Below, in pieces: positions 6,154 through 22,294 of a DNA stretch of 37,277 bases; the stretch's first letter is position 1; each line of letters opens with the position of its first letter. Below the pieces are notes generated by a model. It was not told the DNA's origin, did not search any database, and was given only the letters and a program-made list of their open reading frames with translations. Made by a program: the position numbers and the translations under genes. The DNA comes from Candidatus Latescibacterota bacterium (GTDB lineage: Bacteria; Latescibacterota; UBA2968; UBA8231), in the NCBI GenBank assembly GCA_965221775.1, contig CBDCSU010000001.1, forward strand, positions 1 through 37,277, in the 5' to 3' direction.

Positions 6154-6774
6154 TCACGGGGCGGCGGACCGGAACACCTGCACGAAGACGGTCCAGTCCC
6201 CGTGGGGGCGGACGGCCAGGCCCGTCTCCGTCCACTCGGGCCGGTGCAGGTTCATGCAGTGGCCGGGCGAGTCGATCCAGCCCTGCAGGGCCGCGCCCGG
6301 GTCCGGGTCGGCGGTGGTGAGGTAGATGTTCTCGCCGGCGCCCTGCCCGCGGCCGACGTAGGGGCCGGCGCGGCCGGCGAAGTCGCCATGGCCCTGCAGG
6401 CTTTCCGGGTTGTCGGCCCACAGCGCCGCCAGCTCCTCCAGGTCCGCGGCCCAGGCCAAGGGCTCGGCCGGCGCCTGCTCCTGCCCGTCGCAGGTCCCGC
6501 CGGCGGCCCGGCGGCCGTTGACCGCCTCCGCGGTCCGGCAGGCGACGGGCGCCCAGTCGCAGGCCAGGTCCTGGCCGTCGGCCGCGTCGGCCGCGGCGGG
6601 CGCGTCCTGTTCCGGGTTGGCGATGACGCAGCCCGGCAGATGGCGCACGGTCCGGGTACCGTCGACGGCCGTGCTGTCGGCCGGCGCCTCGTCCGAGCCT
6701 TCCGGGGCCGCCGGCGGCGGTGCGTCCCCGCAAGCGGTGAGGGTGAGCAGGGCGGCGATCAGCAGCAGGTGCAT
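6154..6774 (-). CDS. Lipoprotein with a CAP/SCP domain
   Basis: Signal peptide and lipobox MHLLLIAALLTLTA-C. C-terminal GENI and WIDSPGHCMNL...GLAV...VQVF motifs are typical of bacterial CAP domains. Confidence 0.85.
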   Translation of the reverse strand: MHLLLIAALLTLTACGDAPPPAAPEGSDEAPADSTAVDGTRTVRHLPGCVIANPEQDAPAAADAADGQDLACDWAPVACRTAEAVNGRRAAGGTCDGQEQAPAEPLAWAADLEELAALWADNPESLQGHGDFAGRAGPYVGRGQGAGENIYLTTADPDPGAALQGWIDSPGHCMNLHRPEWTETGLAVRPHGDWTVFVQVFRSAAP

Positions 6775-6804: not shown

Positions 6805-6987
6805 TCACTCGTCGCGGCCGCAGCAGAAGGCGACCCGCTGACCAAGGACGACGCTGCCGGTGCCATCCTCCCCGCCGTCGAAGTGGGCGAGGGTGACCGG
6901 AGCGGCGTCGAGGGCCGCCTTGACCTCGGCGGCGGTGAGGAGGGGATGCAGGACGAGGATCACCCGGGTGGAGTACTCCTCGATCAC
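6805..6987 (-). CDS. C-terminal half of the shared ~95-aa module (probably a frameshifted continuation of 6984..7742)
   Basis: RVILVL..LTAAEVKAALDA...GGEDGTG...VAF..G aligns with the insert in 8115..8696. Confidence 0.55.
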   Translation of the reverse strand: MIEEYSTRVILVLHPLLTAAEVKAALDAAPVTLAHFDGGEDGTGSVVLGQRVAFCCGRDE

Positions 6988-7742
6988 GATGCCGAGCCCG
7001 TGCCCTCCTGGGTCTCAATCTCCCAGGCGTTACCGGCGGCGCCGGGCGGGCGGGTGAGGGTGACGCGGAGGCTACCGATGCTGGTGTGCAGGTGGGCCGT
7101 CGCGTTCATCGTCGGCGGTGGCGGCTCCGGTGGCGGTGGCCGTTCGGGGTCAGGGTCACGCGGCGGCGGGTCCTGTACCTCCACCTCCTCCTCCGGCGGC
7201 GGGTCCTCCGGCGGCGAGCCAAGTGGCTTCGGTGGCCGTTCGGGGTCAGGGTCACGCGGCGGCGGGTCCTGTACCTCCACCTCCGGGCAGTCGAGGGCGT
7301 CGTCCGCGGTGGCGCCGGGCGCCATTTGCGGGGTCGGCGAGGGCCGGCCCGGCGCCGGACAGACCCCATGGCGGGCGTAGAAGTCACTCACCCAGGCCGG
7401 CACCGGGCCCCCGTAGTCATAGGCGGCCCCGCAGTCGCGGTCCGGCCAGGCCGGGCGGTAACCGCGCACCTCGCTGCACCGGGCCTTGGCGCCGCCGAAG
7501 TTCAGCCAGCGCCCCCCCGCCCGCCGGCAGTCCTCGATGTCGGATCTGTCCCACTCGTCGTAGTGGACATCGAAATGCACCGTGTCGGCCGACGCCGTGT
7601 TCACGAGCGTGCTGTCGGAGGGGATCAACTTCGCCGCCGGGGGCCCGGGCGGCCGAGGCGGTGCCAGCGGAGACTCGCCCGCGTCCCCGCAGTGCAGCAG
7701 GGCGGCGCCCAGGGCCAGGATGGCCACGGCTCGATATCGCAT
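6984..7742 (-). CDS. Pro-rich, Cys-containing putative lipoprotein
   Basis: MRYRAVAILALGAALLH-C signal/lipobox-like N-terminus, duplicated EVEVQDPPPRDPDPERPP, GGAGG-like RBS upstream. Confidence 0.7.
   Translation of the reverse strand: MRYRAVAILALGAALLHCGDAGESPLAPPRPPGPPAAKLIPSDSTLVNTASADTVHFDVHYDEWDRSDIEDCRRAGGRWLNFGGAKARCSEVRGYRPAWPDRDCGAAYDYGGPVPAWVSDFYARHGVCPAPGRPSPTPQMAPGATADDALDCPEVEVQDPPPRDPDPERPPKPLGSPPEDPPPEEEVEVQDPPPRDPDPERPPPPEPPPPTMNATAHLHTSIGSLRVTLTRPPGAAGNAWEIETQEGTGSAS
7134..7284. repeat. 55-bp perfect direct repeat (7134-7188, 7230-7284) encoding the Pro-rich linker
   Basis: cggtggccgttcggggtcagggtcacgcggcggcgggtcctgtacctccacctcc occurs twice, 96 bp apart. Confidence 0.9.
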
Positions 7743-7762
7743 GGGTGAAACCCTCCTCCCCT

Positions 7763-8110
7763 TTACCGGTCCTGGTGAGCGAGCCGGTCGAGCAGGACCC
7801 GCAGGTCGGCCCGGGCCTCGCCCTGGTGCGTGCGGATGGACCGCAGCTCGACGAGGATCTCCTCGAGCAGCTGCGACTGGTGCTGGTTCTGCAGGGCGGC
7901 GGCCTCGCGGTTCTCGCGGCAGGAGTTGAACTCGGACCGGAGGCGGGTCGGGTCGACGGGGCAGACCGGCGCCGCCGCCGGCTGCTGGTTGCGCTGCTGA
8001 TACCAGGCGGACCGGATGACGCCGACCCCGGCCCGCAGCAGCAGGGCGCCGGCGCCGGCCGCCGAGACGATACCCACCAGCCAGATGACCCAGGTCGGCG
8101 CGTCGCTCAC
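7763..8110 (-). CDS. Single-TM, coiled-coil membrane protein (holin-like or i-spanin-like)
   Basis: N-terminal hydrophobic helix WVIWLVGIVSAAGAGALLL followed by a helical Q/E/L-rich tail. Confidence 0.55.
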   Translation of the reverse strand: MSDAPTWVIWLVGIVSAAGAGALLLRAGVGVIRSAWYQQRNQQPAAAPVCPVDPTRLRSEFNSCRENREAAALQNQHQSQLLEEILVELRSIRTHQGEARADLRVLLDRLAHQDR

Positions 8111-8114
8111 GGTG

Positions 8115-8696
8115 TCAGCTCCAGGCGTCGATGACGGCCGTCGAGCTCTGCCGGACGACGGCGACCCTCAAGTCGAGGGGCTCGCCGGCGGTGACGTTGA
8201 TGACCAGGTCCTGCTCGTCGTCGACGAGCCGGCACACCAGCGACCCGGCCTTCTCGACGCGGACCCCCTTCGAGACGCGCCGCAGGGTGCGGTCGCCGGC
8301 GTCGCGGCCGCCGCGGAAGGCGACGGCCTGCATCCCGGCGGCAAACGTCCCGGTGCCGTCCTCCCCGCCGGTGTAGGCGGCGCTGGTGGCCGCGTCGGCA
8401 TCGAGGGCCGCCTTGGCCGCGGCCGCGGTGGCGCCGGAGGCCAGGGTCAGGGTGACGCGGCCCTCGTCGGTGTCGACGACGACCCCGGTCGCGTTGCCCT
8501 CGACGGCGACCAGGTCCCAGGCGTTGCCGGCGTCGCCGGCGGGGGCCTTCAGGGTGACGCGCAGGCCCCCTTTGGAGGTGACCAGGTCGGCCGTGGCGTC
8601 GATGCGGTCGAAGGCGCCGGTGCCGCCGATCCGCTCGTGCTGGCGGGCCGAGGCCATCGGCGAGTCGGCGTAGGACGGGATTTCCCAAGGGTCCAT
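8115..8696 (-). CDS. Head-spike base-like protein (resembles RcGTA Rcc01079) carrying a ~95-aa insertion
   Basis: N-terminal DP...DSP.AR and C-terminal SKGVRVEKAGSLVCRL...NVTAGEPLDLRVAVVRQSST resemble my recollection of the Rcc01079 pattern. Lies downstream of the capsid and adaptor genes. Confidence 0.6.
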   Translation of the reverse strand: MDPWEIPSYADSPMASARQHERIGGTGAFDRIDATADLVTSKGGLRVTLKAPAGDAGNAWDLVAVEGNATGVVVDTDEGRVTLTLASGATAAAAKAALDADAATSAAYTGGEDGTGTFAAGMQAVAFRGGRDAGDRTLRRVSKGVRVEKAGSLVCRLVDDEQDLVINVTAGEPLDLRVAVVRQSSTAVIDAWS

Positions 8697-8699
8697 CGG

Positions 8700-9305
8700 T
8701 CACCACTCCCTGCGTGAGTCGTCCAGCTCGGCGCCGGCGTCGAGGTCGCCGCCGCCGATGCGCGGCCGGACGAGGCGAGACAGCAGCCGCTGTGACCCTT
8801 TCGGGTCCTCGTCGAGGTCCCAGGCCTCACGGACCAGCTGCACGACGGCCGGCACCGTCTCGACCACCTCGTCGTCGTCCATGCCGCGGCTCACCGTCAC
8901 CAGCAGCCGCGGCTCGCGGTTCACCTCCGGCCAGCCGGTCTCCGGCGGCCAGATCTCGTACAGCTCCGGCGGGTCCTGGTGGCCGTCGCGGTACTCGGAA
9001 CGGCCGAGGTCGCCGATGACCAGGTCGGCCGCCAGGCGCTGCGCCGTGGCCGGGCGCCAGCCCTTCACCGACACGACGGAGACGATGTAGTTGCGCCGGA
9101 TCAGCAGCGGGTCCTCGCGGGACCGCCGCGGCGCGATCCGGTACGTCTCCTGGCGCGTGAGGACGGGCAGGCCCGTCTCGCGCTGGACCTTGCGGACCGC
9201 GTCGCGGGTGAGGCGCTCGAAGAGGTCGTCGTGCTCGGTGCCGTCCTCCCCGAGCTGCGCCTTCAGCGCCGCGAGGCTGATGACGTCGGCCGGTGTCGTG
9301 GCCAT
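8700..9305 (-). CDS. Head-tail adaptor (HK97 gp6-like)
   Basis: VISLAALKAQLG..GTEHDDL...A...V.RETG motif; first gene after the capsid gene. Confidence 0.8.
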   Translation of the reverse strand: MATTPADVISLAALKAQLGEDGTEHDDLFERLTRDAVRKVQRETGLPVLTRQETYRIAPRRSREDPLLIRRNYIVSVVSVKGWRPATAQRLAADLVIGDLGRSEYRDGHQDPPELYEIWPPETGWPEVNREPRLLVTVSRGMDDDEVVETVPAVVQLVREAWDLDEDPKGSQRLLSRLVRPRIGGGDLDAGAELDDSRREW

Positions 9306-9395
9306 GGGCTGGAGGAGGCCGCCGTCTTCGCCCCGGGGTCTATCAGGCCCGGGCAGCGGCCCCCTCTTCAGGTATCCCCCCCGCTCGAAGCGCCG

Positions 9396-10823
9396 TCAGG
9401 CGTTCGAGATCGTGACGAAGGCGGGCGGCCGGTACACGCACAGCGCCCACCGGATGGTGGCCAGGATCCGCATGCGGTTCCTGGTGAAGTCGTCGTCGAT
9501 GAAGCCCCACTCGATCATGATCTCGCGGGCGATCCGGGCCTCGATCCACATCGGCAGGAAGGACCCGCAGATGGCGTTGACCTTGCCTTTGCCGGTCGTG
9601 GCGTCCAGGACCTCGGAGAACACCACGGGCAGGCCGTGGGCCCTCTCCTCGAAGCCGGTCACCGCCGAGCCGGCGTAGTAGCCGTTGTTGTTCTTGGCGG
9701 TGACGACGACGTCCCAGACCGTGGGGTGGAAGACGTAGTCGGTCGGCATGGACCGGCCCGGCGTCAGGACCTTGGTGCGCGCGAAGCGCAGCGTGTCCCA
9801 GGGGTCGGCGCGGCTCGCCTTCCAGTTCTGGTCCTGCAGGCCGGACACGTTGAGCAGCCCTTGGGGGGCGGGGGCGGTGCCGCTGCCGGTGAGCGACAGG
9901 TCGTCCGAGCGCTGAATGACCAGCGCCGGGACCCGCATGTTGAGGTAGGAGTCGACGAGGTCGCCGTCCTCCATCGTCTGCTTGGTCACCGGGACGTGGG
10001 TCCCGATGTCCCTCACGTCGACCTCGGTGTTGCTCATGTCGAGGTCGGACTCGGGGAAGGGCGAGTCCTCGGCGGTGGCGGCCGCCTTGCCGCCCTCGTC
10101 CTTGAGGGTCTCGACCAGGAAGATGGCCTTGTCCCGGCCCGGGCGGATCGTCGTCTTCGGGAGCAGGTCCCAGAAGTTGGGCGGACGCCACCGCGCCTCG
10201 ACGTAGCCGGGATCCCTGACCGAGAACGGCGGGTAGCCGTCGGTCCGGCTGAAGGTGGCGCCGGCGGACCGGCCGAGGATCTGCCGCGGGTTGTACTTCA
10301 CCGCCAGGACGCGCTTGCTCTGCCGGGCGTCCATGATGAAGTCCTCCCCGAACTCGGGGATGGCGGTCGCCTCGTTGGCCTCGTTGTACGCGGCCACGGC
10401 GGCGCGGAAGTCGGCGGCCAGCCCGGCCGGCTCGCCCTGACCCATCGCCTCGAGGCGCTGCTGCACGCTGGCCTCGACCAGGTCGCGGATCGTCTGCTCG
10501 CCCTCGGACCCCTGGGGGCCCTCGCCGTTGGCGATGGCGGCGGCCTGCGTCTCCTCCTCGCGGGCCTTGAGCAGGTCGTTGACCGCGGCCAGGCGGGTGT
10601 GGTTGGTGACCGCGGAGGCGACCTTCTCCTCGGCGGTGCCGGCGTAGACGTTGTTCTGGTCGATGTCGTCGGGACCGGCCTCGAAGCGGGTATGGAGGCC
10701 GTCCAGCTCCTCCTGCATCCGCGTCAGCACCCCGGTCGGCGCCGACGAGTAGTCGGCGAAGAAGCGGTGCCGCTCCTCGATGTCCACCGAGGTCACGGGC
10801 CGCATGAAGTTGGGCTTGGGCAT
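9396..10823 (-). CDS. Major capsid protein, HK97 fold, with N-terminal scaffold (delta) domain
   Basis: Motifs AE..PFPES, VTKQTMED, LTGSGT...PQGL, KNNNGYY, GLPVV, FTRN...I.A..R...VYRPPAF. Confidence 0.95.
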   Translation of the reverse strand: MPKPNFMRPVTSVDIEERHRFFADYSSAPTGVLTRMQEELDGLHTRFEAGPDDIDQNNVYAGTAEEKVASAVTNHTRLAAVNDLLKAREEETQAAAIANGEGPQGSEGEQTIRDLVEASVQQRLEAMGQGEPAGLAADFRAAVAAYNEANEATAIPEFGEDFIMDARQSKRVLAVKYNPRQILGRSAGATFSRTDGYPPFSVRDPGYVEARWRPPNFWDLLPKTTIRPGRDKAIFLVETLKDEGGKAAATAEDSPFPESDLDMSNTEVDVRDIGTHVPVTKQTMEDGDLVDSYLNMRVPALVIQRSDDLSLTGSGTAPAPQGLLNVSGLQDQNWKASRADPWDTLRFARTKVLTPGRSMPTDYVFHPTVWDVVVTAKNNNGYYAGSAVTGFEERAHGLPVVFSEVLDATTGKGKVNAICGSFLPMWIEARIAREIMIEWGFIDDDFTRNRMRILATIRWALCVYRPPAFVTISNA

Positions 10824-10843
10824 TTGGGTTTCCTCCCTGGGGA

Positions 10844-11668
10844 TCAGGTGCGCAGCCGCAGGAGACTGCGGCCGCGGATGACGTTCGAGGATCGGGGTTC
10901 CGGGTCCGGGGGTTCCGGGTCCGGATCGGCGGGCGGCTCCTCACCGCCCTCGTCGTCGTCGACGCCGGCCAGGACCTGGTGACACAGGCCGGCCTCGCAG
11001 GACTCGTCGCCGGTGAGCCAGCAGTCCTCGGTCAGCCACATGCTCCGCGTCTCGTCGTCGGCCGTGGTCCGCAGCGCGTAGACCTCACCGATCGCCTTGG
11101 CGTCCGCCTCGAGGACCTTGTCGGCCGCGCTCAACGTCTCGGCGACGTCGGCGCGGGTCCCCGAATAGAACCCGTGCACGATCCAGGGCTCGTGCAGGAA
11201 CATCAGCGAGCCGGCGATCATGCAGCGCTCCTCACCGGCCAGGAACGGGAGCACCGCGGCGGACGCGACCAGGCCGCGGCCCTCGGTGACGATCTCGACG
11301 CCGTCGCGGGCCCGGCCGTGCAGGTCGGCCCACAGCGCCAGGGCGTCGTCGATGAAGCCGCCCGGGGACTCGATCAGGACGCGGACGCGGGACAGGGGCG
11401 CCAGGTAGTCGAGGCGGCGGATCAGGGCCTGCGCGTCGCACCCGAACCACCAGCCGATGAGTCCTTGGATGCGGACGGTGACGTCGGCGCCGTCTTCCTC
11501 GGCCATCGCCTCGGGCCGCTCGTCGTCGTGCATCGCGCCGGCGGCGCGCACCGAGACGACGGTCTGCTCCGGGATCTGGCAGCCCGCGCGGCGGGCCCAC
11601 CGGGCCCAGGGCTGCAGGCGGTGAGGGTTCGGCGGCGCCTGGCCGCCGCTGGCGCCGAGGACTCTCAA
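10844..11668 (-). CDS. ClpP-family prohead maturation protease
   Basis: IESPGG, GLVASAA (catalytic Ser), MFLHEP (His) and WLTGDE..EAGL motifs; directly upstream of the capsid gene. The true start may be an internal ATG. Confidence 0.9.
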   Translation of the reverse strand: MRVLGASGGQAPPNPHRLQPWARWARRAGCQIPEQTVVSVRAAGAMHDDERPEAMAEEDGADVTVRIQGLIGWWFGCDAQALIRRLDYLAPLSRVRVLIESPGGFIDDALALWADLHGRARDGVEIVTEGRGLVASAAVLPFLAGEERCMIAGSLMFLHEPWIVHGFYSGTRADVAETLSAADKVLEADAKAIGEVYALRTTADDETRSMWLTEDCWLTGDESCEAGLCHQVLAGVDDDEGGEEPPADPDPEPPDPEPRSSNVIRGRSLLRLRT

Positions 11669-12375
11669 CGGGCCTGCCGCAGGGCCTCGGCCAGGGCCTC
11701 GATCTTGAGGACGTAGACCACGATGGCCGAGCCGCGGCAGTAGCCGAACTTGGCGCGCTTGTGGTAGCGGGGCTGCTCGAGCAGCGGCAGGGCCCGGGCT
11801 ACCCCCTCCCAGGTATCGGACGGCCAGCCCTGGACCTTGGCCAGGCGCTGCGCGTCGCGCACGTGGCCGGCGCCGCCGTTGTACGCGGCCAGGGACAGCC
11901 GGCGCGCGTCGTCGGCGTCGGCCACGTCAACCTGCTCGCGCAGCTGCTTCAGGTAGCGGGCGCCGGCCTCGATCCCCTGGGCCGGGTCGTGAGGGTCACG
12001 GACGCCGAGGGCGGCCGCCGTCGGGCCCGTCAGCTGCATCAGCCCGCGGGCCCCTCCCGGCGACACCGCCTCCGGCCGGAACCGGGACTCGGCCTGCACG
12101 ATGGCCGCCAGCCAGCGCCAGTCGTGACCGTAGCGGTCGGCGGCCGCCTGCAGCACGTCGTCAAAGGGCAGCCGGCCGTCGGTTTCGTAGGCGCTGACGA
12201 GGTCGGCCTGGGCGCTCACCCACCCTTCGACCCGCTCGGCGATCTCCGGGTCCGGCGGGGGCGCCTCGTCGTCGAAGATCGTCAACAGCCCCGCCACCAG
12301 GAGGCCGAGGCCGATGACGATGGGGATCAGGTAGGTCGGGTCGCCGCGGGTCAGCGCCTGCATCGCCCTGCTCAT
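11665..12375 (-). CDS. Lytic transglycosylase (SLT, MltF-like catalytic domain) with an N-terminal TM anchor; probable endolysin
   Basis: DWRWLAAI..AES.F...AVS..GA.GLMQL, LAAYNGG.GHV.DA and GYCRG motifs; TM segment YLIPIVIGLGLLVAGLLTIF. Start at ATG 12375 or 12363 rather than 12498. Confidence 0.9.
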   Translation of the reverse strand: MSRAMQALTRGDPTYLIPIVIGLGLLVAGLLTIFDDEAPPPDPEIAERVEGWVSAQADLVSAYETDGRLPFDDVLQAAADRYGHDWRWLAAIVQAESRFRPEAVSPGGARGLMQLTGPTAAALGVRDPHDPAQGIEAGARYLKQLREQVDVADADDARRLSLAAYNGGAGHVRDAQRLAKVQGWPSDTWEGVARALPLLEQPRYHKRAKFGYCRGSAIVVYVLKIEALAEALRQAR

Positions 12376-12652
12376 TGTGGATAACCTGTCGAAAAGGGCC
12401 CTGGGGATGGTGGACAACCCGGAAATTACGCCGAGATCGGGAGTTATGCATCGCCCGTTTTCCCCAGGGATTGTGGACCGATCCCCGGTTTTCCACACTT
12501 ATCAACATGGTTATCCACACCCGGTAAGATGGAACGCGCGCGGAGAACTGCAAGCAGTAGAGGGTACTAGGTACTCCTGAGTACCCCCTGCTGCTGCTGA
12601 GCAGCACCGAGGTACTTACCTAGGGCGAGGGTGTGGAAAACGGTTGTCCACA
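12376..12652. promoter_or_regulatory. Cluster of DnaA boxes; oriC-like replication origin
   Basis: Exact TTWTNCACA at 12376-12384(-), 12489-12497(+), 12511-12519(+) and 12632-12640(-). One-mismatch boxes at 12387(-), 12458(+), 12499(+) and 12644(+, TTGTCCACA). Non-coding and AT-richer than its surroundings. Confidence 0.8.
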
Positions 12653-12771
12653 ACGGGGCGCGCACGGGCCCCGTGTCGCCCCGCGGCCGGGGGCGGGCGG
12701 TTACCGGGACGCCGGCGGGGGCCGATCGGGCGACAGGAGCCGCCTGTGGGCGACGTGGGCGGTTTCCGGGG

Positions 12772-12996
12772 TCAGTCCCCGCCCCCGTCTTCGCCGCCCT
12801 GGGCGCGCACCCGGGCCGCGATCCGGTCCGCCAGCCAGTTTTCGGGGTCCTCGGCCGCCTCGTCCTCGCCGGCGAAGATCAGGGCCCACTCGCGGGCCTC
12901 GGACAGGCGGATCTCCCGCCGGGTCCGGGTCAGGGACCAGCCCAGCTCACCGGCCAGGCGCCGGGTCAGTCGGGCGCCTGGCCGGGCGAGTTTTTT
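12772..12996 (-). CDS. Tail assembly chaperone frameshift extension (gpGT-like) via a -1 slip
   Basis: Slippery A-AAA-AAC at 12990-12996, in phase. The -1 frame reads KLARPGARLTRRLAGELGWSLTRTRREIRLSEAREWALIF... to the stop at 12772, matching the LA..LG....E..EW pattern of gpT. Confidence 0.8.
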   Translation of the reverse strand, partial: KKLARPGARLTRRLAGELGWSLTRTRREIRLSEAREWALIFAGEDEAAEDPENWLADRIAARVRAQGGEDGGGD

Positions 12997-13343
12997 CGGA
13001 CCGTCTCGTCCGGGACGGAGAGGCCGTTGATCCGGATGGCCTGACGGACCAGGACCGCGCCGAAGGGCATGGGCAGGGTGTCCAGGTCCTGGCCGGACCA
13101 GGGGCTCCCGTCCTCGTTGACGAGGGTGAGGCGCAGCAGCTTGAGGATCCAGGGCCGGCCCCGGCGAGGGGGCGCGGCGCCGGCCTTCTTCTCGTCCGCG
13201 TCGTCGCCGTCCGGCCCGTAGAGGTCATCCCACTCGCCCAGGCTCAGCTCACGGATCCAGAACGGGATGCCGTTGACGGTGACCGGGTGGACCTCGGCCG
13301 CCAGGACCTGGCCGGCCGCGGCCGCCGCCTTTTTGCCGGCCAT
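12966..13343 (-). CDS. Tail assembly chaperone (gpG-like)
   Basis: Follows the tube gene; IRELSLGE and LVNEDG motifs; ends just after the slippery KN codons. Confidence 0.8.
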   Translation of the reverse strand: MAGKKAAAAAGQVLAAEVHPVTVNGIPFWIRELSLGEWDDLYGPDGDDADEKKAGAAPPRRGRPWILKLLRLTLVNEDGSPWSGQDLDTLPMPFGAVLVRQAIRINGLSVPDETVRKNSPGQAPD

Positions 13344-13777
13344 CAGCCGCTCGTCAGGCGGGCGATCTTCGAGTACGGCCGGAACTGCACCGGGGACTCG
13401 CGCAGCGCGCCCGGGCGGGCCGTGACCGGGTCGTAGCTGACCAGCGACCAGGTGCCGAGGTAGGCCGGGTTGCTGTCCGATCGCGATCCGGAGGCGGGGC
13501 GCACCTCGACGCGGGCCCGGCCCGAGGACGAGTTGTAGATGTCGAACAGGACCTCGTCGACCCCGTCGTCCTTGTAGTCCTGCTTCAGGCTCAGCGCCAG
13601 GGACCCGGACTGCAGGCCGGCCTCGACGACCTCGTGGTCGTCTTTGACGGTCGTCGCGTCGACCTCGGCGCGCGACAGGCGCAGCTCGACGGAGCGGCAG
13701 GCGTCGGACACCTCCTTCGCGGTGCCGCCGGTGTCGCCGGGGGTGATCTGTACGAAAGCGTCACGCCAGATGGCCAT
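13343..13777 (-). CDS. Major tail tube protein
   Basis: VS...RSVEL.....EVDATT......AGL....L...QDY and RP.......NPAY.G motifs; 144 aa, directly upstream of the TAC. Confidence 0.8.
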   Translation of the reverse strand: MAIWRDAFVQITPGDTGGTAKEVSDACRSVELRLSRAEVDATTVKDDHEVVEAGLQSGSLALSLKQDYKDDGVDEVLFDIYNSSSGRARVEVRPASGSRSDSNPAYLGTWSLVSYDPVTARPGALRESPVQFRPYSKIARLTSG

Positions 13778-13803
13778 GGTTTGTCTCCCATGGGTGAGGG
13801 GGT

Positions 13804-14565
13804 TTAGACGACGCCGTAGACGACGCCGAGGCAGGCGTGCGGGGAGTTGGTCCCGCTGATCGTCAACAACGTCTGGATCTCATTATGCACGATGGCCCCG
13901 GCGGCCGTCTTGACGTACACGCCGACGGTGGTCGGGTCCGTGAAGGGCGGGCCCTGGGCGTCGAAGGTGAGACGGTCCGTCCACGTGGTCGACCCCGTCC
14001 GGGTCTGCACCTTGAGCCGGACGGTGGTCCGATCGGCCAGGGCGAACAGGTGGAATGCGGCCCACAAGGTCCCGTCGGCCTTCACCCCCTCAAAGGGCAG
14101 CGTCTTCGACGGCTGGTCCGTGGCCGGGGTCACCATATCGCGGTGGTCGAGGACGGTGCCGGCCAGGACCGGGTCGGGCCCGGGCAGCTCCTCCTTCTCG
14201 GTCGCTACCGCCGACAGGTCCCACTGCCGCAGCTGACCGACGCGGCCGGTGTGCCGCCATTCCTGGATCCGGCCCTCGAAGACCCGGGCCTTGTCGCCGA
14301 CGCCGCCGGCGCCGTCCGGGACCACGGACATGACGACGACGTCGCCGCGCGAGTAGTAGTTCAGGGGCAACGCGTCGTCGGCCGGCTCGTCCAGGAACCC
14401 GGCCGCCTCGAGGCGCCCGGCGCGCAGCCCGGCGACGGTGCGGGTGTGGTCGTCTGAGACGGCGGTCCGGTCCAGCTCGGCGCGCCGCAGTCCGAGGCGC
14501 GCGCTCGAAGCGACGCCGGTAAGGTCCCACCCGCCGATCCAGCAGGTGGCGCGGGATACGGCCAT
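13804..14565 (-). CDS. Tube-fold-like tail protein with a C-terminal extension
   Basis: N-terminal DLTG..SSARL.LRRAELDRT..SDD....VAGLRAG parallels the tube protein 13343..13777. Confidence 0.65.
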   Translation of the reverse strand: MAVSRATCWIGGWDLTGVASSARLGLRRAELDRTAVSDDHTRTVAGLRAGRLEAAGFLDEPADDALPLNYYSRGDVVVMSVVPDGAGGVGDKARVFEGRIQEWRHTGRVGQLRQWDLSAVATEKEELPGPDPVLAGTVLDHRDMVTPATDQPSKTLPFEGVKADGTLWAAFHLFALADRTTVRLKVQTRTGSTTWTDRLTFDAQGPPFTDPTTVGVYVKTAAGAIVHNEIQTLLTISGTNSPHACLGVVYGVV

Positions 14566-14569
14566 GGTT

Positions 14570-14983
14570 TCAGCTCCCCTGCAATGGTGAGGCCAGGACC
14601 CGGAAGCGCAGGCTGCGCCAGTAGTGGCCCGTTTCCTCGTCCTTGCCGCCGTCGTAGCCGGCGTTCTCGATGTCGCACATCCGGCCGCTGTACCCGGGGT
14701 CGTCGGCCGGCCAGTGAATCAACGCCAGCTGCACCTGGTTGGAAACGGTCATCCGCTCCAGGGCCGTCTCGCCCCACACCGTCACCTCGACGATGTGCCG
14801 CTCGAGATGGTCCGGGCCCGACAGCCCGGGCTCGGCCGGGCCCGCGTCGTCGCTGGCCCAGGCCACGTCGAGGGCCGGCAGCGGCGTGTTCTCGGGCAGC
14901 TCGTCGGCGTAGACCCGCGCGCTGATCAGGGCCGCCAGGTCGGGGAACCCCTCGAGCCGCGTCTGCACCTGGGCTTCCATCAT
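14570..14983 (-). CDS. Tail completion/terminator protein (DUF3168 / SPP1 gp17-like)
   Basis: ATGA-coupled start at 14983; LAALISARVY...P...PLPA and VEVTVWG motifs. Confidence 0.8.
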   Translation of the reverse strand: MMEAQVQTRLEGFPDLAALISARVYADELPENTPLPALDVAWASDDAGPAEPGLSGPDHLERHIVEVTVWGETALERMTVSNQVQLALIHWPADDPGYSGRMCDIENAGYDGGKDEETGHYWRSLRFRVLASPLQGS

Positions 14984-15348
14984 GCCAGCCGCTCCGTCCC
15001 CGCGGTGATCTGCGTCACGCAGCGCCGGGCCCCCTTGCGGGCCGGCACCGGGCGCACGTCGTGCAGGTACCAGACCTGGCCGGCCTCGTCGACGACGCGG
15101 TCCCGGGTGGTGAGGCCGGCCTCGAGGCGCACCAGGCGCCAGGTCCGGGTGGTCACCTGCAGGACCTGGTCGGCCGCGTGCTCGTCCCGGCCGGCGTGGC
15201 GCATCAGCTGCGCCCACACCCGGGTCGAAGCCGGCGACGTCCGCTGAAGCGGCCCCCAGGTGGCGACGGGGTCCCCGACGCCGGAGCCCGAGGTCCTCAC
15301 GATCCGCTCGAGGGTGAGCCGGATCCGCGGGCCGAAGAGGCCGCTCAC
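14980..15348 (-). CDS. Head closure protein (SPP1 gp16-like)
   Basis: GTGA-coupled start at 15348; RLTLER....G.G.PV.TW......VWA and DRVV motifs. Confidence 0.75.
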   Translation of the reverse strand: MSGLFGPRIRLTLERIVRTSGSGVGDPVATWGPLQRTSPASTRVWAQLMRHAGRDEHAADQVLQVTTRTWRLVRLEAGLTTRDRVVDEAGQVWYLHDVRPVPARKGARRCVTQITAGTERLA

Positions 15349-15758
15349 GGCGCCCCCGGCGTCGGCCGCTGCAGCAGGGCCAGGGCGTCGGCCTCGTCGT
15401 CCGGCACCGCGTCGAAGCTGATCCGCCGGCGCGAATCCGGGTCCCCGCCGAGCAGCTGCAGGCACTTGAGCGCGTGGATGCGGGACGCGGAGATAAGTCG
15501 CTCGTAGCCCTGACTTTCCGCCCTCACGATCTCGCCCGCCCCCTTCCAGCGGCCGTCCTCGATCGCCTCCAGCGCCTCGACGGCCGACCACTGCTGCGCC
15601 TTGGCCTCGCACAGCTCGATGACGATGGGCCGGTCCGTGGACGTGAGGAACGGCCAGACGCGCCGGAGCATGGACCAGTAGGCCCGCCTCGGGTCACCGC
15701 CCGTCCAGGCCTTCGGCGGGTTGCCGATGGTGCGCGGCTTCTCGGTCTGATCTGTCAC
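15345..15758 (-). CDS. terS: Terminase small subunit, P27-family-like
   Basis: GTG start after GAGGGGG; PP..W, W, LT.TD...LC and LGGDPDSRRRI (LGLTPxSR-like) motifs. Confidence 0.75.
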   Translation of the reverse strand: MTDQTEKPRTIGNPPKAWTGGDPRRAYWSMLRRVWPFLTSTDRPIVIELCEAKAQQWSAVEALEAIEDGRWKGAGEIVRAESQGYERLISASRIHALKCLQLLGGDPDSRRRISFDAVPDDEADALALLQRPTPGAP

Positions 15759-16025
15759 TGCCCCCCCTCGGAACATCGAAGATACCACCCCCGCGCGGCC
15801 GAGGCCCTCACCGACGCCGGGCTGACGAGCCGAATCGGGCCCGGAAGCGCACGAAACCCGGGAAGAAAACGGCACCTGTGGGCCGATTCGGGGGGCCTGT
15901 GGAGCGCGAATCGCGAGGTCCGCTCCAATGGAGCCCGCGCACATGCGCCCACAAGGCGATTCTCAACGTGGCAGAAAAATGCCGACGCTACCGCGGGTTG
16001 TCGGCCCCCTCGGCGTGTCAGCGGA

Positions 16026-16056
16026 CACCCCCCCCCTTGGGACGCAGGGGGGGGTG
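16026..16056. other. Candidate cos site: 10-bp inverted repeat around an 11-bp core
   Basis: CACCCCCCCC-cttgggacgca-GGGGGGGGTG in non-coding DNA ~270 bp upstream of terS. Confidence 0.4.
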
Positions 16057-16302
16057 AGGGTCCCCGGGGGGGTCCCGGGGGGGTCCGCCGGGGGGTCCCG
16101 GACCGGCCGGCCGGGCGCCGGCGGGTCACCCTGGCCGGCCCGCGGCCAAGTGACCGGCGTGATTGGTCGGGTCCGGGACCGGCGCCGGGTCCGGGTCCGC
16201 CGCGTTTCCCGCCGCGTCCTCAAGGGCCCATTCGACAAACGCGTCAACCGGCGCGCCGGGTCCGGCGGCCCTCCTCGATCCGTCGTAGCGTAACGGCCGC
16301 AA

Positions 16303-16450
16303 GTACTGGATCCGCCGGGTGAGGCGCGGCCGTCCTGACGGGCCGGCCGGGGGTACCCGATCCGCCGGGTGGGAACCGCCGCCGGTACTGGATCCGCCGG
16401 GTGGGCGCGGCTGCCGCGGCCGCCTCGCCGGGGGTACTGAATCCGCCGGG
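16303..16450 (+). repeat. Four 17-bp direct repeats GTACYSRATCCGCCGGG (iteron/operator-like)
   Basis: Copies at 16303, 16353, 16385 and 16434; the last ends 4 bp before TTGACA. Confidence 0.85.
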
Positions 16451-16454
16451 CGCT

Positions 16455-16483
16455 TTGACAGGCCCGGAAAGAGTTACTAAAAG
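16455..16483 (+). promoter_or_regulatory. Sigma70-type early promoter
   Basis: TTGACA, 17-bp spacer, TAAAAG (weak -10), then GGGAGG RBS and ATG at 16508. Confidence 0.55.
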
Positions 16484-16507
16484 ACACACCCGAAGGGAGG
16501 GCCGCAG

Positions 16508-16714
16508 ATGCCCAGGAGCCGCAAGCACTACGTCCGCAAGTTCCAGGTGATGTTCACCGAGGAGCAGGCGGAGGCGATCGAGAAGGTCCAGCGCGAGAGT
16601 GACAACTGGCCGGCCGCGGAGGTGATTCGCGAGGCGACGGCCGCCGGCCTCAAGACGGTGAGCGCGCGCATCCGCCAGCGCCGCAAGCGAGCGAGGGCCG
16701 ATGCCGCTGCGTGA
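16508..16714 (+). CDS. Ribbon-helix-helix (Arc/CopG-like) DNA-binding protein
   Basis: KFQVMFTEEQAEAIEK......AAEVIREA pattern; strong RBS; first gene of the plus-strand block. Confidence 0.7.
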   Translation: MPRSRKHYVRKFQVMFTEEQAEAIEKVQRESDNWPAAEVIREATAAGLKTVSARIRQRRKRARADAAA

Positions 16715-17270
16715 CCTGCGAGGCGCCGACCTTTCCCACCGGGACCTGACGCACGGCTACCTCGTCGGGCGGGACCTCACCGAGGCCGACCTGCGGCGGC
16801 GGTTCTTCACCGGGTCCGACCTGCGTTGGTGCAACCTCTACCGGGCCCGGCTCGACAGCTCCCGGATGTCCGAGTGTGACCTGGCCATGGCGATCCTGAT
16901 CGAGGCGCAGGCGCCCCGCGTCCACCTCACCCGGTCCTGCCTCGTCGACGCGAAGCTGAGTCACGCGAACCTGGCCGGCGCGCACCTCGACGGCGCGGTC
17001 CTGCGGTGGGCGAAACTCGACGGCGCCGACCTACGCCAGGCCGACCTGCTCAACGCCAGCCTGATCGGCGCGGACCTCATCGGCGCCGACCTGCGCGGCG
17101 CGGACCTCACCGGCGCCGACCTGCGGTGGGCCAAACTGCTCGACGTGCAATGGGAAGGCGCGAACCTCACCGGCGTATGGGGCCTGGCCGGCGGGTCCGC
17201 CCGCCGCGACGGGGCCCCGCCGCCCGCAGCCCGCGCCGGCCTGCCCATGGCCTCGAGGTCGCCGGCGTGA
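16701..17270 (+). CDS. Pentapeptide repeat protein
   Basis: Long run of A(D/N)Lxx repeats (ADLRG, ADLTG, ANLTG). Confidence 0.95.
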   Translation: MPLRDLRGADLSHRDLTHGYLVGRDLTEADLRRRFFTGSDLRWCNLYRARLDSSRMSECDLAMAILIEAQAPRVHLTRSCLVDAKLSHANLAGAHLDGAVLRWAKLDGADLRQADLLNASLIGADLIGADLRGADLTGADLRWAKLLDVQWEGANLTGVWGLAGGSARRDGAPPPAARAGLPMASRSPA

Positions 17271-17830
17271 ACGTCCCCTCCTCACCATGGAAGCTGACGT
17301 TCCACGAGCGGGTCCGGCTGCGCCAGGACGTGCTCACCAACTGGCGCCTGCGCGTCTTCGCTGAGGTGATGGCCAGGGCCCTGAAGAATCACAAGGCCGG
17401 GCCGCTGGTGTGGTCCGGGATCGATCAGGAGATCCGCGTCGGGTATGACCGGGACCTGGCCTCGATCCAGGTCTGGCGGTACCGCCAAATCAAGCAGCAG
17501 GTCCGCCACGGGTCGATCCTGGCCTTCGGGTTCGGCGGCCGGACGAGGGGGGCCTGGAAGCGCGTCTACGGTCCCGACGGCGGGAGCCTGCCCGCCGAGA
17601 CGCCGGCGGCGCTGCGGCCGCCCTGGTGCGCCGTCGCCGTCCCGTCCCTGCTGCGGGGGGAGACGGCGGTGAACGCGACCAACCCGATCGCCGCCATGAT
17701 CGGCGTCTGGCTGCACCTGGGCGACGACGGCCTGCGTGAGACGGAGGTCCGCAGCGACGAGGAGCTGACCGAGGCCCTCGGCCGTATGTCCCTGCCCGTC
17801 ATCGACGGCGCCATGGTGTCGCCCAACTGA
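17267..17830 (+). CDS. Hypothetical protein (187 aa)
   Basis: GTGA-coupled start; composition is normal from VNVPSSPW onward. Confidence 0.7.
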   Translation: MNVPSSPWKLTFHERVRLRQDVLTNWRLRVFAEVMARALKNHKAGPLVWSGIDQEIRVGYDRDLASIQVWRYRQIKQQVRHGSILAFGFGGRTRGAWKRVYGPDGGSLPAETPAALRPPWCAVAVPSLLRGETAVNATNPIAAMIGVWLHLGDDGLRETEVRSDEELTEALGRMSLPVIDGAMVSPN

Positions 17831-17847
17831 GGGGAGGAGGGCCCGCT

Positions 17848-18057
17848 ATGCCGAAAGCCCCGGCCGGAGCGCAGACCTGCCGCGTCTGCGGGTGTTGGGA
17901 GTTGGACCCCTGCTTCGACGAGGACAAAGGCGAGTGCTACTGGGTCGAGTCGGACCTGTGCAGCCACTGCGCGGACAAACCCGAGGCGGCCGTCGTCACC
18001 GCCGGCGGCCCGGGGTTCCGCATGGACAAGGCGAACCGCCGCGACGGGGCCCGATGA
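17848..18057 (+). CDS. Small Cys-rich zinc-finger protein
   Basis: CRVCGC...C....CYWVE.DLCSHC; GGAGG RBS. Confidence 0.75.
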   Translation: MPKAPAGAQTCRVCGCWELDPCFDEDKGECYWVESDLCSHCADKPEAAVVTAGGPGFRMDKANRRDGAR

Positions 18058-18599
18058 TGCCGGAGATGAACCTGCCCCCCGGCGTTGCCTGGGTCGTCGT
18101 CCAGGACCTGCGCGTCCAGCCGATCTCGGTCTACGAAGAGGCCCCCGACGACCTGCGCCTGCTGCTCGAGGTCCTGGCGTCGCTGCGCAGGGCGAGTCCG
18201 ATCGTCCACGGCGCCGCGCTCGAGTGTCACGCGATATGGGACCAGCCCGGGCAGGATCGCTTCCTGGCCCTGACCTGGGGACAGCGGCACACCGACGAGC
18301 GCGGCCTCTGCGTCATCGCGGTCCGTGACCCCGCCTTCGGCCGCCGCTTCCTGCCGCCCGAGGTGATCCCCTCGTCGTCCACGTGGGCCTTGATCGGCAT
18401 GAACCCGGGCCTCGGGTTCACCGGGCCCCAGGCGGCCGCGTGGACGACGGTGATGCTGCGCTACGCCGAGGCGTGGTTGAGCTACGGCGCCGCGGGCCTC
18501 GACCTGCTCACGCCGCGGCCGGTCCGTGAGCTGCACCGGATCATGCTCGAGAACCAGGGGCGCATCGCCGCGGCCTGGTCGGAGGGGCGCGTCGAGTGA
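18054..18599 (+). CDS. Hypothetical protein (181 aa)
   Basis: ATGA-coupled start at 18054. Confidence 0.7.
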   Translation: MMPEMNLPPGVAWVVVQDLRVQPISVYEEAPDDLRLLLEVLASLRRASPIVHGAALECHAIWDQPGQDRFLALTWGQRHTDERGLCVIAVRDPAFGRRFLPPEVIPSSSTWALIGMNPGLGFTGPQAAAWTTVMLRYAEAWLSYGAAGLDLLTPRPVRELHRIMLENQGRIAAAWSEGRVE

Positions 18600-18793
18600 C
18601 CTTCTTCCGCGACCTCTACTGGCAGGCCCGTCGCGAGCAGGTGACCCGGGCAGCCCGGATGTACCGGGACACCGGCGACGCCGCGGCCGCCATGGGCATC
18701 ACCGTCAAGTCGTTCCTGAAGCTGTGCAAGAGGTTCGGGATCGAGCCCCCCGGCAAACGCCGCCGGCGTGAGGCCCGGGAGGCGCGGCGGTGA
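18596..18793 (+). CDS. Small Fis-like HTH protein (copy 1)
   Basis: AAAAMGITVKSFLKLCKRFGI HTH; paralog of 19926..20138. Confidence 0.75.
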   Translation: MTFFRDLYWQARREQVTRAARMYRDTGDAAAAMGITVKSFLKLCKRFGIEPPGKRRRREAREARR

Positions 18794-18872
18794 GGATCCT
18801 CGATTCCTCGGGCGCGCTGCGCCCGGGCCGGCGGTCCGTTTCGGGCCGCCGGAACGGCCGGCGGGTAAGCGA

Positions 18873-19256
18873 ATGAGCCGGGCAAGGACTCCTGGGGAGA
18901 GTGCGCCGCTCCCGCCGGCCACCAGATCTGGTGCCAGCTCAGCTGCCCGGGCAGACGTTTTCCCGCAAGATCTTGTGTTGGTCGAGGGCGCGCGTCGCCG
19001 CCTCGAGGAGGCCCGCGCGGCCGTCGAGGACCTGGCCGCGGCCCTCACCCCGCCTCGGCGGCCGGCCGGCCCGCGCCATGATCCGTCAGGGAGGGAGGCG
19101 CCTGATAGGGCGGCGCCCCTGCGGCCGGCCGGCCGCCCTCCTGAAACGACCCGGAAACCGGACCCCGATCGGTACGAGGGGGTCCCGGTCCGGCGCCTGC
19201 CTGACGCGCCGGCCTGGACCCGCCAGAACATCGCCTGCGGTGAGGGGTGGCGGTGA
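18873..19256 (+). CDS. Hypothetical protein, paralog of 20325..20840
   Basis: Shares PATRSGASSAARADV.PQD.VLVEGARRRLEEARAAVEDLAAALTPPRRP; start uncertain. Confidence 0.5.
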   Translation: MSRARTPGESAPLPPATRSGASSAARADVFPQDLVLVEGARRRLEEARAAVEDLAAALTPPRRPAGPRHDPSGREAPDRAAPLRPAGRPPETTRKPDPDRYEGVPVRRLPDAPAWTRQNIACGEGWR

Positions 19257-19266
19257 AGTACTCCCG

Positions 19267-19377
19267 TTGAACGCTGACTGGTTCCTGGCCGTGGCCTTCG
19301 TCGTTGGGGTGGCCTTTGGGCTGCCCTGGGGGTACTTCCTCGGCCGCCGCAGAGAGTGCCCAAAGGGCGCAAGGTAA
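19267..19377 (+). CDS. Small membrane peptide
   Basis: TTG start; MNADWFLAVAFVVGVAFGLPWGYFLGRRR is a single TM helix with a basic tail. Confidence 0.5.
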   Translation: MNADWFLAVAFVVGVAFGLPWGYFLGRRRECPKGAR

Positions 19378-19450
19378 TGGGAATTACCTCGCTCCACATG
19401 CCGAATCCGGCAACCAGCGCCCGCTTTCCCTTACACCGTGGAGGCCCCGT

Positions 19451-19567
19451 TTGAGTCGGTCCCGAAACACCAACCGGAAGCACCGTCGCAAGGGGTGGCG
19501 CAATGGCCGGGGCGCTCGTGAGCACAGGAAGCCGGGAGCAACGTCGTCGTCGCCGCCGCCGCCGTGA
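19451..19567 (+). CDS. Small basic peptide
   Basis: TTG after GGAGG; reads SRSRNTNRKHRRKGW... Confidence 0.3.
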   Translation: MSRSRNTNRKHRRKGWRNGRGAREHRKPGATSSSPPPP

Positions 19568-19614
19568 CGCTGTCGCCTCACGCCCCACACCCTTACACCA
19601 TGGAGGCCCTCCCG

Positions 19615-19929
19615 TTGACCCCCGAGACGATCGCCCTGCTTGAGTCCCCTGAGCGGCCCCGGATCTACCAGCCTGACCGATGGCGCTGCGCCAGCTGCGG
19701 CAAGGTCCGCTACGGCGGGACGAACTGCTGGCGCTACGTAGGTCCGCCGGTGACGCATTTCTGCCTGCCGTGTCGGACCGAGGCCCTGGCCCTTCTCGCG
19801 ATGGCGCTCGTCGAGCCGGCCTTCAAGGAGGAGATGGCGCGGATCGGCGCCTCCGAGGGGGCGGAACGCGCGGCCGCACGGGGCCGGGCCTTGGCCGCCG
19901 CCTATGAACGAGTGCAGGCGGCGTCGTGA
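19615..19929 (+). CDS. Zinc-finger hypothetical protein
   Basis: CASC...CLPC; TTG after GGAGG (alternative start 19564). Confidence 0.65.
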   Translation: MTPETIALLESPERPRIYQPDRWRCASCGKVRYGGTNCWRYVGPPVTHFCLPCRTEALALLAMALVEPAFKEEMARIGASEGAERAAARGRALAAAYERVQAAS

Positions 19930-20138
19930 AGCGCCTCGGCCGGCGGATCCTCCGCGACCTCTACTGGCAGGCGCGCCGCCAGCAGGTGGCCCGGGTGGCC
20001 CGCATGCACGGCGACACCCGCGGCGCCGCGGCCGCGATGGGCATCACCGTCAAGTCGTTCCTGGAGCTGTGCAAGCGGTACGGGATCGAGACCCCCGCCA
20101 AACGCCGCCGGCGTGAGGCCGAGGAGGCCCGGGGGTGA
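19926..20138 (+). CDS. Small Fis-like HTH protein (copy 2)
   Basis: RDLYWQARR...AAAAMGITVKSFLELCKRYGI. Confidence 0.75.
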   Translation: MKRLGRRILRDLYWQARRQQVARVARMHGDTRGAAAAMGITVKSFLELCKRYGIETPAKRRRREAEEARG

Positions 20139-20324
20139 GGATCCCCGAATTCCCCCCAGGGGGCGCCGCACGGCGCCCAGGACGCGCGTACCGTGGCAGG
20201 CGCGTGTTCCCGGCCGCGGCGCCGATCGGCGCGCGTCGTGGGCCCTCCCTGGGGTTCAACGACGGGGCGCGCTGCGCGTCCCGGCCGGCGGATCGTCCGC
20301 CGGCAACGGCCGGGCCGGGGTGCG

Positions 20325-20840
20325 GTGGATAACCTGCGGGGTGAGCGGATCGGGAGACCTCGCCCCGTGGGCTCTGGGGAGAGCGACCCGCGCCTTGGCC
20401 CGGCCACCAGATCTGGTGCCAGCTCAGCTGCCCGGGCAGACGTTTCCCCGCAAGATGTTGTGTTGGTCGAGGGCGCGCGCCGGCGCCTCGAGGAGGCCCG
20501 CGCGGCCGTCGAGGACCTGGCCGCGGCCCTGACCCCGCCTCGGCGGCCGGCCGCCCCGAGCTGCACGAATCCGGCCCGTTCCAAGGGGCTGTGCGGGGCC
20601 CATCTGAGCCAGGTATACCGGGGTCGGCCACTGACGCCGCTCAAGGGCATCGGCTACCTACCGCGCCGCGGCGGCGGCGATCCCTATCGCCGTCTGGCCG
20701 CTGCGGTGCTGCTGCAGGCCCACCGCGCCGCCGATCGCGGCGACGTCGGCGCCGGCGTGTTTCTCGACGCCGGCGGGGGCCTCTATGGGGACTACCTCGA
20801 CATCGAACCGCGCCGCCGCGGCGGGGAGCTGCTGTCGTGA
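20325..20840 (+). CDS. Hypothetical protein with a C-x8-LC-x2-H zinc-binding motif
   Basis: Paralogous N-terminal part, then CTNPARSKGLCGAH; start uncertain. Confidence 0.55.
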   Translation: MDNLRGERIGRPRPVGSGESDPRLGPATRSGASSAARADVSPQDVVLVEGARRRLEEARAAVEDLAAALTPPRRPAAPSCTNPARSKGLCGAHLSQVYRGRPLTPLKGIGYLPRRGGGDPYRRLAAAVLLQAHRAADRGDVGAGVFLDAGGGLYGDYLDIEPRRRGGELLS

Positions 20841-21004
20841 GGCGCCTCGGCCGGGTGATGGAGAGGCAGGTGTGCCTGTGCGCGTGCAGGGCCCTCTACA
20901 AAGCCGGGGGGTGGTTGTTCTCGTGGCATACCTGGATCAGCCAGACGCACGTCCGTCTTTGTCAGCGGTACGAGCGCCTGGCCCGGCGGGATGGGGTGTG
21001 GTGA
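20837..21004 (+). CDS. Small hypothetical protein
   Basis: GTGA coupling at both ends; reads VRRLGRVMERQVCLCAC... Confidence 0.5.
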   Translation: MRRLGRVMERQVCLCACRALYKAGGWLFSWHTWISQTHVRLCQRYERLARRDGVW

Positions 21005-22281: not shown

Positions 22282-22294
22282 GTAGGAGACACCG

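Follow-up and report, generated by a model that had tools for sequence, protein, structure and literature searches.

A 396-bp non-coding gap in a tailed-phage genome of the Latescibacterota carries an array of DnaA boxes that is real and non-random, far beyond what chance would give. Judged by its sequence, the array has the DnaA-assembly part of a replication origin, without a recognisable opening part. We tentatively read it as a DnaA-docking array that has no unwinding module and does not itself fire, and that would serve as a sink for host DnaA, as a gate on transcription, or as both; we rate this reading a little short of even.

The window, that is the whole stretch of DNA analysed, is one entire contig of 37,277 bp with 72.8% GC, in a genome of 5.36 Mb assembled in six contigs. 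Pfam and PHROGs matches identify it as a tailed-phage genome. On its minus strand it encodes the large terminase (26125-27957), the portal (24619-25920), a D12-class adenine methyltransferase (23821-24612), a tail-completion protein with two major-tail-like proteins and a tail chaperone (12966-15217), a ClpP-type prohead protease (10844-11668), the capsid (9396-10823), an adaptor and a Neck1-type protein. The N-terminal 403 residues of the tape measure run off the contig start, and the Dit- and J-like/collagen tail proteins lie at the opposite contig end. An early block on the plus strand (16508-23854) ends in a recombinase of the Phage_integrase family. Between this contig and the remaining assembly no shared sequence exceeds 40 nt; the contig has neither overlapping ends nor a terminal repeat. 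Two other small contigs (C2 and C3) were considered as missing phage parts and rejected, being chromosomal (DnaE, sulfatases, transporters).

The gap (12376..12771), delimited by a frame plot and a stop-codon map, separates the genes of the tail chaperone G/GT and of an SLT-domain protein. The minus-strand gene of tail assembly chaperone G (12966-13343) together with its frameshift-type extension covers 12772..13343 (phrog_344; frame plot), and the third-position GC signal of the extension is clear as far as 12772; the array is preceded directly by this gene. Downstream of the array, the SLT-domain (lytic transglycosylase) gene (11665..12375, minus strand; PHROGs; Pfam SLT, 2.7e-24) is the first of the protease-capsid block. 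The array is therefore situated within the late structural gene block and outside the early region. The left half of the gap (12376-12652), with the boxes, has about 55% GC, and the right half, with palindromes, about 80%; with 53% GC versus 73% overall, the 150-bp stretch 12369-12518 shares the minimum of the contig. Between the two box groups, the segment 12553..12616 contains an inverted repeat (arms 12553-12568 and 12580-12595, 88% complementary) and four GGTACT motifs, at 12563, 12570 and 12611 and, on the minus strand, at 12580. GGTACT occurs 16 times in the window versus 4.1 expected, and a phage protein may have its sites in this block. The motif was rejected as a second origin factor shared with the host family, because the family origins carry 0-3 copies and most of them none. 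A GC-rich palindrome (12654..12683), located just downstream of the chaperone gene in the sense of transcription, resembles a terminator hairpin devoid of a U-tract, and the terminator scan made no call for it. The promoter scan of the gap found no sigma-70-like site and no promoter-like hexamers, Rfam gave no family above threshold for the gap (two sub-threshold chance matches), and ARAGORN predicted no tRNA in the gap or elsewhere in the contig.

Searching with the consensus TTWTNCACA, we obtained within 12376-12652 four exact boxes (12376 and 12632 on the minus strand, 12489 and 12511 on the plus strand) and four with one mismatch (12387 on the minus strand; 12458, 12499 and 12644 on the plus strand). 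These eight are among 14 matches in the window, where 3.2 were expected, and none of 100 shuffles reached 14. The earlier note had claimed four exact and four one-mismatch boxes within about 280 bp, and this count was thus reproduced. When the 9-mer TTATCCACA was used at up to one mismatch, the window gave seven matches for an expectation of 0.66, a number again reached by 0 of 100 shuffles, and six of the seven fell inside 12376-12652: exact copies at 12376 (minus) and 12511 (plus), and single mismatches at 12489, 12499 and 12644 (plus) and at 12632 (minus).

The layout of the boxes is as follows. An exact TTATCCACA (12376..12384, minus strand) abuts the ATG of the SLT gene at 12375. Three weak boxes come next: TTTTCGACA (12387..12395, minus; one mismatch to TTWTNCACA), TTGTCCACC (12409..12417, minus; two mismatches to TTATCCACA, with the GG 5' extension of the strong boxes) and TTTTCCCCA (12458..12466, plus; one mismatch to TTWTNCACA). 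The tandem trio TTTTCCACA, TTATCAACA, TTATCCACA occupies 12489..12519 on the plus strand with start-to-start spacings of 10 and 12 bp, and a back-to-back pair, TTTTCCACA on the minus strand and TTGTCCACA on the plus strand 3 bp apart, occupies 12632..12652; both arrangements are as they had been described before. The pairs 12499/12511 and 12632/12644 each have a 3-bp spacer. A GG 5' extension is common to the strong boxes, and several boxes lie within local direct repeats of 17-22 nt.

We give a negligible probability to an artefact, whether the boxes clustered by chance or mis-assembly fused a segment of host oriC to the phage. A chance cluster is ruled out by the shuffles, none of which reached the observed count with either version of the consensus. 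Short-read contigs from four runs of one sample span 7255-18944 (7255-18396 in one run) with 0 differences, which indicates that the array is contiguous with both flanking genes. In BLAST comparisons, the gap shared with the host origin patches of at most 12 nt plus one 27-nt stretch at 78%, and its best match to 26 origins of the host family was 22 nt long, corresponded to a tandem box pair and scored no higher than the best of 60 shuffles. The suspicion that the segment is chimeric host oriC is excluded by the four-run contigs together with this lack of homology to origins. Likewise, an array copied from a captured oriC of the host or its family was rejected, the similarity being at shuffle level. 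A search of sequencing runs found the stretch only in the source sample, and no RNA run was among the matches. Elsewhere in the window, the short-read contigs of the four runs have an extra C after position 6996 (at full depth in two); a one-base indel in the window is probable where the ORFs 6805-6987 and 6984-7742 meet, and the two may form a single gene. The contig of one run reaches about 480 bp past window position 1.

The boxes were then compared with those of the host. The 9-mer TTATCCACA, which is also read by E. coli DnaA, has only four exact copies in the 5.36-Mb genome, and two of them are in the array. Counting boxes with no more than one mismatch, no 300-bp segment of the genome is as dense as the array, which has six; all others have at most three. 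A runner-up with three boxes (C6:1806982) is the dnaA-dnaN intergenic region, the host origin, at half the density of the array. Its three strong boxes, TTTTCCACA, TTATCAACA and TTATCCACA, are the variants of the phage tandem trio; order, orientation and spacing differ. In the host origin (C6:1806900-1807480), two weak boxes, (TAG)5 and then an AT-rich stretch form a textbook unwinding module, and its box layout, a tandem pair with a convergent box 26 bp on, recurs across the host-family origins.

A dnaA match was obtained in 28 of the 31 host-family genomes searched, the host included, and DNA downstream of it was fetched from the 27 others; the origin survey comprised 26 regions of at least 600 bp downstream of dnaA, the host's own among them. 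The maximum per 280 bp was 2-6 boxes (median 4, n=26), so that the box density of the array equals the highest value among these origins. Box pairs of the same orientation 11-13 bp apart occur in 15 of the 26, the phage equivalent being 12499/12511, and every variant box of the phage is found among the variants of the family origins. Since number, variants and 12-bp tandem spacing match those of the family, the array is, as far as its sequence tells, of origin grade for the host lineage in box number and quality. The box variants match the host DnaA specificity, and binding of DnaA to the array is predicted.

The earlier note had proposed that the phage carries a mini-oriC. In the available text of PMC8287927, the rule for finding the bacterial basal unwinding system asks for a box with at most two mismatches, followed after 0-16 bp by three or more NAN triplets. 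The NAN runs in the gap, of four and three triplets, formally reach this minimum, and both overlap another box or the SLT start codon; for comparison, the host has (TAG)5 and runs of five or more were seen in 20 of the 26 family origins. No AT-rich unwinding element was found in the gap, where the AT-richest 30 bp (19/30) are the box trio itself, as compared to 23-29/30 in 25 of the 26 family origins. The GC-skew check that had been suggested gave no sign change at the gap, the skew being positive on both sides, which is a weak criterion for a 37-kb phage. Of the mini-oriC proposal, real and host-matched boxes and the lack of a recognisable replication gene stood up; an AT-rich element, a convincing DnaA-trio run and a skew switch were not found. 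Because the parts needed for DNA opening are missing, the array more likely captures DnaA than starts replication.

No initiator, helicase, helicase loader, primase, polymerase, ParA/ParB or plasmid Rep was found in the 52 ORFs with Pfam, PHROGs and NCBIfam. Relaxing Pfam to E = 5 brought up nothing relevant, and an ESM Atlas search with the 498-aa frame gave no usable match. The previous statement that the phage has no recognisable replication genes is borne out by the three libraries; as evidence, however, it is weak, because 11 other early genes were scanned and placed by no family library, and the three largest are complete ORFans. These are, all in the plus-strand early block, p373 (21160-22281), p185 (17273-17830) and p180 (18054-18599); a search of 5.8 billion proteins gave for each of them no match except itself, and the same holds for p373 in a HMMER search of 1.84 billion representatives. 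A single-sequence AlphaFold model of p373 had a pLDDT of 39.8 and was unusable. The early ORFans may include a hidden initiator. The idea of a phage-plasmid system received no positive support from the three libraries, with neither ParA/ParB nor a plasmid Rep, and the recombinase that had been called Cre-like and taken as a hint of such a system belongs to the ordinary Phage_integrase family. At the gap itself, there is no iteron series and no adjacent Rep gene.

Several other features of the early region deserve mention. The segment 16340-16510, probably the region of the lysis-lysogeny switch, contains three operator-like repeats (approximately GGGGTACYSRATCCGCCGGG) with a spacing of about 49 bp, followed by an early promoter (TTGACA-17-TAAAAG) and a GGAGG ribosome site that lead into the first early gene, whose product is RHH-like and 68 aa long. 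Next in the early operon, a second gene (16701-17270, plus strand) encodes a pentapeptide-repeat protein (Pfam, 1.5e-38), which may be a host-takeover or anti-defence protein of the DNA-mimic type. Two paralogues of about 65-70 aa, p65 and p70 (18596-18793 and 19926-20138, both plus strand), have a C-terminal HTH-like segment, the second with a weak HTH_50 match (E 0.066), and are candidate DNA-binding regulators. Apart from the pentapeptide-repeat protein, no family library placed the small early genes of 16508-22591 (plus strand), p215 having a weak HNH match only.

Relatives of the phage were sought through the capsid. One of the 167 other genomes of the phylum that were searched has a capsid relative, and identity across the relatives is 34-49%. 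Six loci were found among genome contigs, one in this same Latescibacteria genome and five in three Vicinamibacterales MAGs; single-protein and two-sequence-profile searches with the capsid had no match in viral or metagenome contigs, and the gap had none in 50,697 phage records. The array was looked for in these relatives, as the earlier note had advised, and was not found in the six, all of them distant, where any boxes within 10 kb of the capsid gene are single and scattered. Since the array is not conserved in the capsid lineage, conservation is uninformative for or against a function. In the Latescibacteria relative, terminase, portal, protease and capsid genes are contiguous in this order. 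This closest relative (G131:C1:3393000-3411600; loci L009/L010) has a length of about 18 kb, is compact and phage-like, and is flanked by recA/M42 peptidase on one side and by an LRR protein gene on the other. It encodes TerS, a ParB_N protein, TerL, portal, protease, capsid, a GH108 lysin and a collagen-like tail protein, no integrase or replication gene was detected in it, and it may be defective or GTA-like.

The comparison with this element also identified p199 (15345-15944, minus strand) as a P27-type small terminase (26% identity over 118 aa to its Terminase_4 protein, E 5e-6), 10 kb from the large terminase (26125-27957, minus strand) and portal genes. The gene order of the window is scrambled: TerS, tail completion, tail tube, chaperone, the array, SLT, protease, capsid ... 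Neck1, tape measure, Dit ... tail fibre ... TerL and portal, with the array at one module junction. Two further peculiarities of the structural genes are an exact 38-bp tandem duplication (25960-26033; 1.9 copies, 100% identical) between the large terminase and the portal, and a CAP/SCP-domain protein (6154-6774, minus strand; Pfam, 1.9e-12) inside the head-tail block, which is unusual for a virion module.

DnaA-box arrays carried by phages are already known from the T5-like phages, and what is new here is the uncultured phylum and the unusual position. According to the available part of a preprint (bioRxiv 10.1101/866236), T5-like phages have, in their terminal repeat, a non-coding injection-stop region with about eight DnaA boxes, paired at a distance of 3 bp. 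The mapped origins lie elsewhere, and membrane-bound DnaA was proposed to hold the DNA at this region. A literature search, with subscription journals outside its scope, returned no description of phage arrays beyond this preprint. IMG/VR was scanned for a perfect tandem pair (9-mer, 3 bp, 9-mer), and at least 119 stretches were found versus 16 for the reversed control. Among 80 loci fetched of the at least 119, 34 have four or more boxes per 280 bp, 21 five or more and 12 six or more; the loci were selected for a perfect pair, so these proportions are not population estimates. No DnaA or DnaN was found among the 73 ORFs flanking the 21 densest loci. In three of the 34 dense loci the array adjoins or lies within an initiator-like gene (replication-initiation PHROGs, two of them O-like), from which some phage arrays are probably parts of origins. 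A terminase gene is located within 1.5 kb in five of the 34, endolysin and/or GP88 genes flank the array in six, and in one viral contig (L072) seven boxes lie in a 188-bp gap between a minor head gene and a scaffold gene. The IMG/VR arrays (L047-L126) have up to 12 boxes per 280 bp, their neighbours include endolysin/GP88, terminase, head genes and RusA, and lambda-O-like initiators are only sometimes near. The Shigella phage VB_Ship_A7 (Berlinvirus, T7-like, NC_048180.1) has eight boxes, four of them exact, in about 126 bp (positions ~22-147), all in one orientation and beside the large terminase gene at the genome end. DNA polymerase, primase/helicase, SSB, ligase and RNA polymerase are all encoded by this phage itself. 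Dense arrays thus recur in phages, including one with a replisome, and are not diagnostic of a Rep-less life style. The survey suggests that they are common in viral contigs; most are away from replication genes, and phage arrays may be a general and under-studied means of capturing or sensing the host initiator.

The docking reading is favoured because the opening elements are missing and because phages whose replication does not require DnaA have arrays of equal density. Host DnaA would oligomerise on the array. With 8-10 boxes on each copy of a multicopy, replicating genome, the phage would outcompete the host origin, which has three strong boxes, and take up the DnaA; a DnaA complex at the entry to the SLT-protease-capsid operon, with an exact box touching the start codon, might also gate transcription of the head genes. 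The array fits the anatomy of a titration locus, with several predicted high-affinity boxes outside the chromosomal origin and no unwinding element. The datA-like titration that the earlier note gave as its alternative hence agrees with this anatomy better than a mini-oriC does, and lowered initiation in the host is a prediction of it. T5 and T7 degrade host DNA, which argues against titration as a universal role of phage arrays. That the scan found no sigma-70-like promoter in the gap counts against gating. Two observations are counted against docking: no replication gene was found, as a DnaA-dependent replicon would predict, and the distant relatives are without the array, which leaves no function supported by conservation.

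The array could instead be the vegetative origin of the phage, on which host DnaA assembles and recruits the host helicase, either alone, as a Rep-less mini-oriC, or with a phage co-factor; this is possible, and on balance we doubt it. The co-factor would be encoded among the ORFan early genes, and, in place of an AT-rich element, the passage of transcription across the gap or the inverted repeats would open the DNA. Such an origin is consistent with the lack of any initiator, helicase, loader, primase or polymerase in the 52 ORFs and of missing phage parts among the other small contigs, which are chromosomal, with a box density that equals the maximum of the family origins and the tandem spacing found in them, and with a position at the lowest-GC spot of the contig. 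The GGTACT motifs and inverted repeats between the box groups loosely recall iteron origins and could bind a phage co-factor, and three of the 34 dense viral arrays lie in or beside initiator-like genes. However, the gap has no AT-rich element or DnaA-trio run comparable to those of the family, its GC skew does not switch, it is placed in the late structural block rather than in the early region, and phages with their own replisome have equally dense arrays; the absence of a Rep is itself weak evidence, with early genes unplaced and p373, p185 and p180 strict ORFans. The more specific version, in which a temperate tailed phage without an initiator of its own replicates as a host-DnaA-driven minichromosome opened by transcription or by box-bearing inverted repeats, is in our opinion unlikely. 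If true, a Rep-less replicon of the oriC type would be the first tailed phage shown to replicate without its own initiator, and the array as an origin would offer an explanation of how small temperate phages without recognisable replication genes copy their DNA.

Two further readings dispense with both sink and origin. DnaA might act here purely as a transcription factor, the array being the control region of the SLT-protease-capsid genes and coupling the head genes to the level of DnaA-ATP, and so to growth or replication state. The array lies immediately upstream of this operon with an exact box against the start codon, GC-rich hairpins follow the upstream chaperone gene, the array of L072 also sits between head genes, and DnaA regulates promoters in bacteria (available text of PMC13438810). 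The promoter scan weighs against it: the gap has no promoter-like hexamers, although the early promoter of the phage is clear. Known DnaA-regulated promoters also need far fewer than the 8-10 sites present, and we consider a purely transcriptional role quite improbable. Very improbable, finally, is a merely coincidental likeness to DnaA boxes, with the repeats serving as sites for phage proteins, such as arm-type sites of the integrase at attP or operators of p65/p70. In its favour, attP regions are low in GC and non-coding and have many short repeats of either orientation, no non-coding DNA adjoins the integrase gene, and duplication is suggested by the direct repeats of 17-22 nt found locally around the boxes. 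But two sites are exactly TTATCCACA, a word so rare in the 5.36-Mb genome, the variants are those of host-family origins, and the gap is 10 kb from the integrase gene; an attP core shared with the chromosome was sought, and nothing was found beyond chance-level 17-19-mers.

Among known systems, chromosomal origins with a basal unwinding system, as in the host family, resemble the array in box number, quality, variants and 12-bp tandem spacing; the phage gap differs in having no comparable DnaA-trio run and no AT-rich region, in its location away from dnaA/dnaN, and in the absence of a skew switch and of homology to the surveyed origins. Phage-borne DnaA boxes are also present in P1 oriR, which, like the origins of pSC101 and F, is an iteron origin with auxiliary DnaA boxes flanking the repeats. 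The array shares with these origins DnaA boxes on either side of a central block of short repeats, and differs from them in being without an adjacent Rep gene, an iteron series of 17-22 bp and partition genes. The E. coli datA locus and the DBCs of B. subtilis are clusters that titrate or inactivate DnaA, datA being defined by an IHF site and by its DnaA-ATP hydrolysis activity. As in these loci, the phage boxes are clustered outside the origin, have no unwinding element and would compete with oriC for DnaA; unlike datA, the array is phage-borne, and its copy number would rise during replication.

The closest likenesses in phages are of two kinds. VB_Ship_A7 and the IMG/VR arrays have the same dense boxes at 11-12-bp spacing in non-coding DNA near morphogenesis or packaging genes, with the difference that in VB_Ship_A7 the boxes are co-oriented at the genome end of a phage with a complete replisome of its own. 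The injection-stop array of the T5-like phages, as far as the available part of the preprint describes it, is also non-coding, has about eight consensus and near-consensus boxes with pairs separated by a 3-bp spacer, includes, within inverted repeats, variants such as TTATCAACA and TTATCCCCA-type boxes, and is not at a mapped origin, just as ours is not where an origin would be expected. The T5 array, in the same text, is built on an IRC/IRD inverted-repeat scaffold in the terminal repeat of a virulent phage with its own replication genes, and its function, a stop of injection by membrane DnaA, is itself put as a hypothesis; the array described here separates tail from head genes, belongs to a phage that bears an integrase and comes from an uncultured phylum, and has no sequence similarity to T5. 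If DnaA binds it, a phage of this phylum would be using a T5-like trick, with a DnaA landing pad of origin grade on its own DNA.
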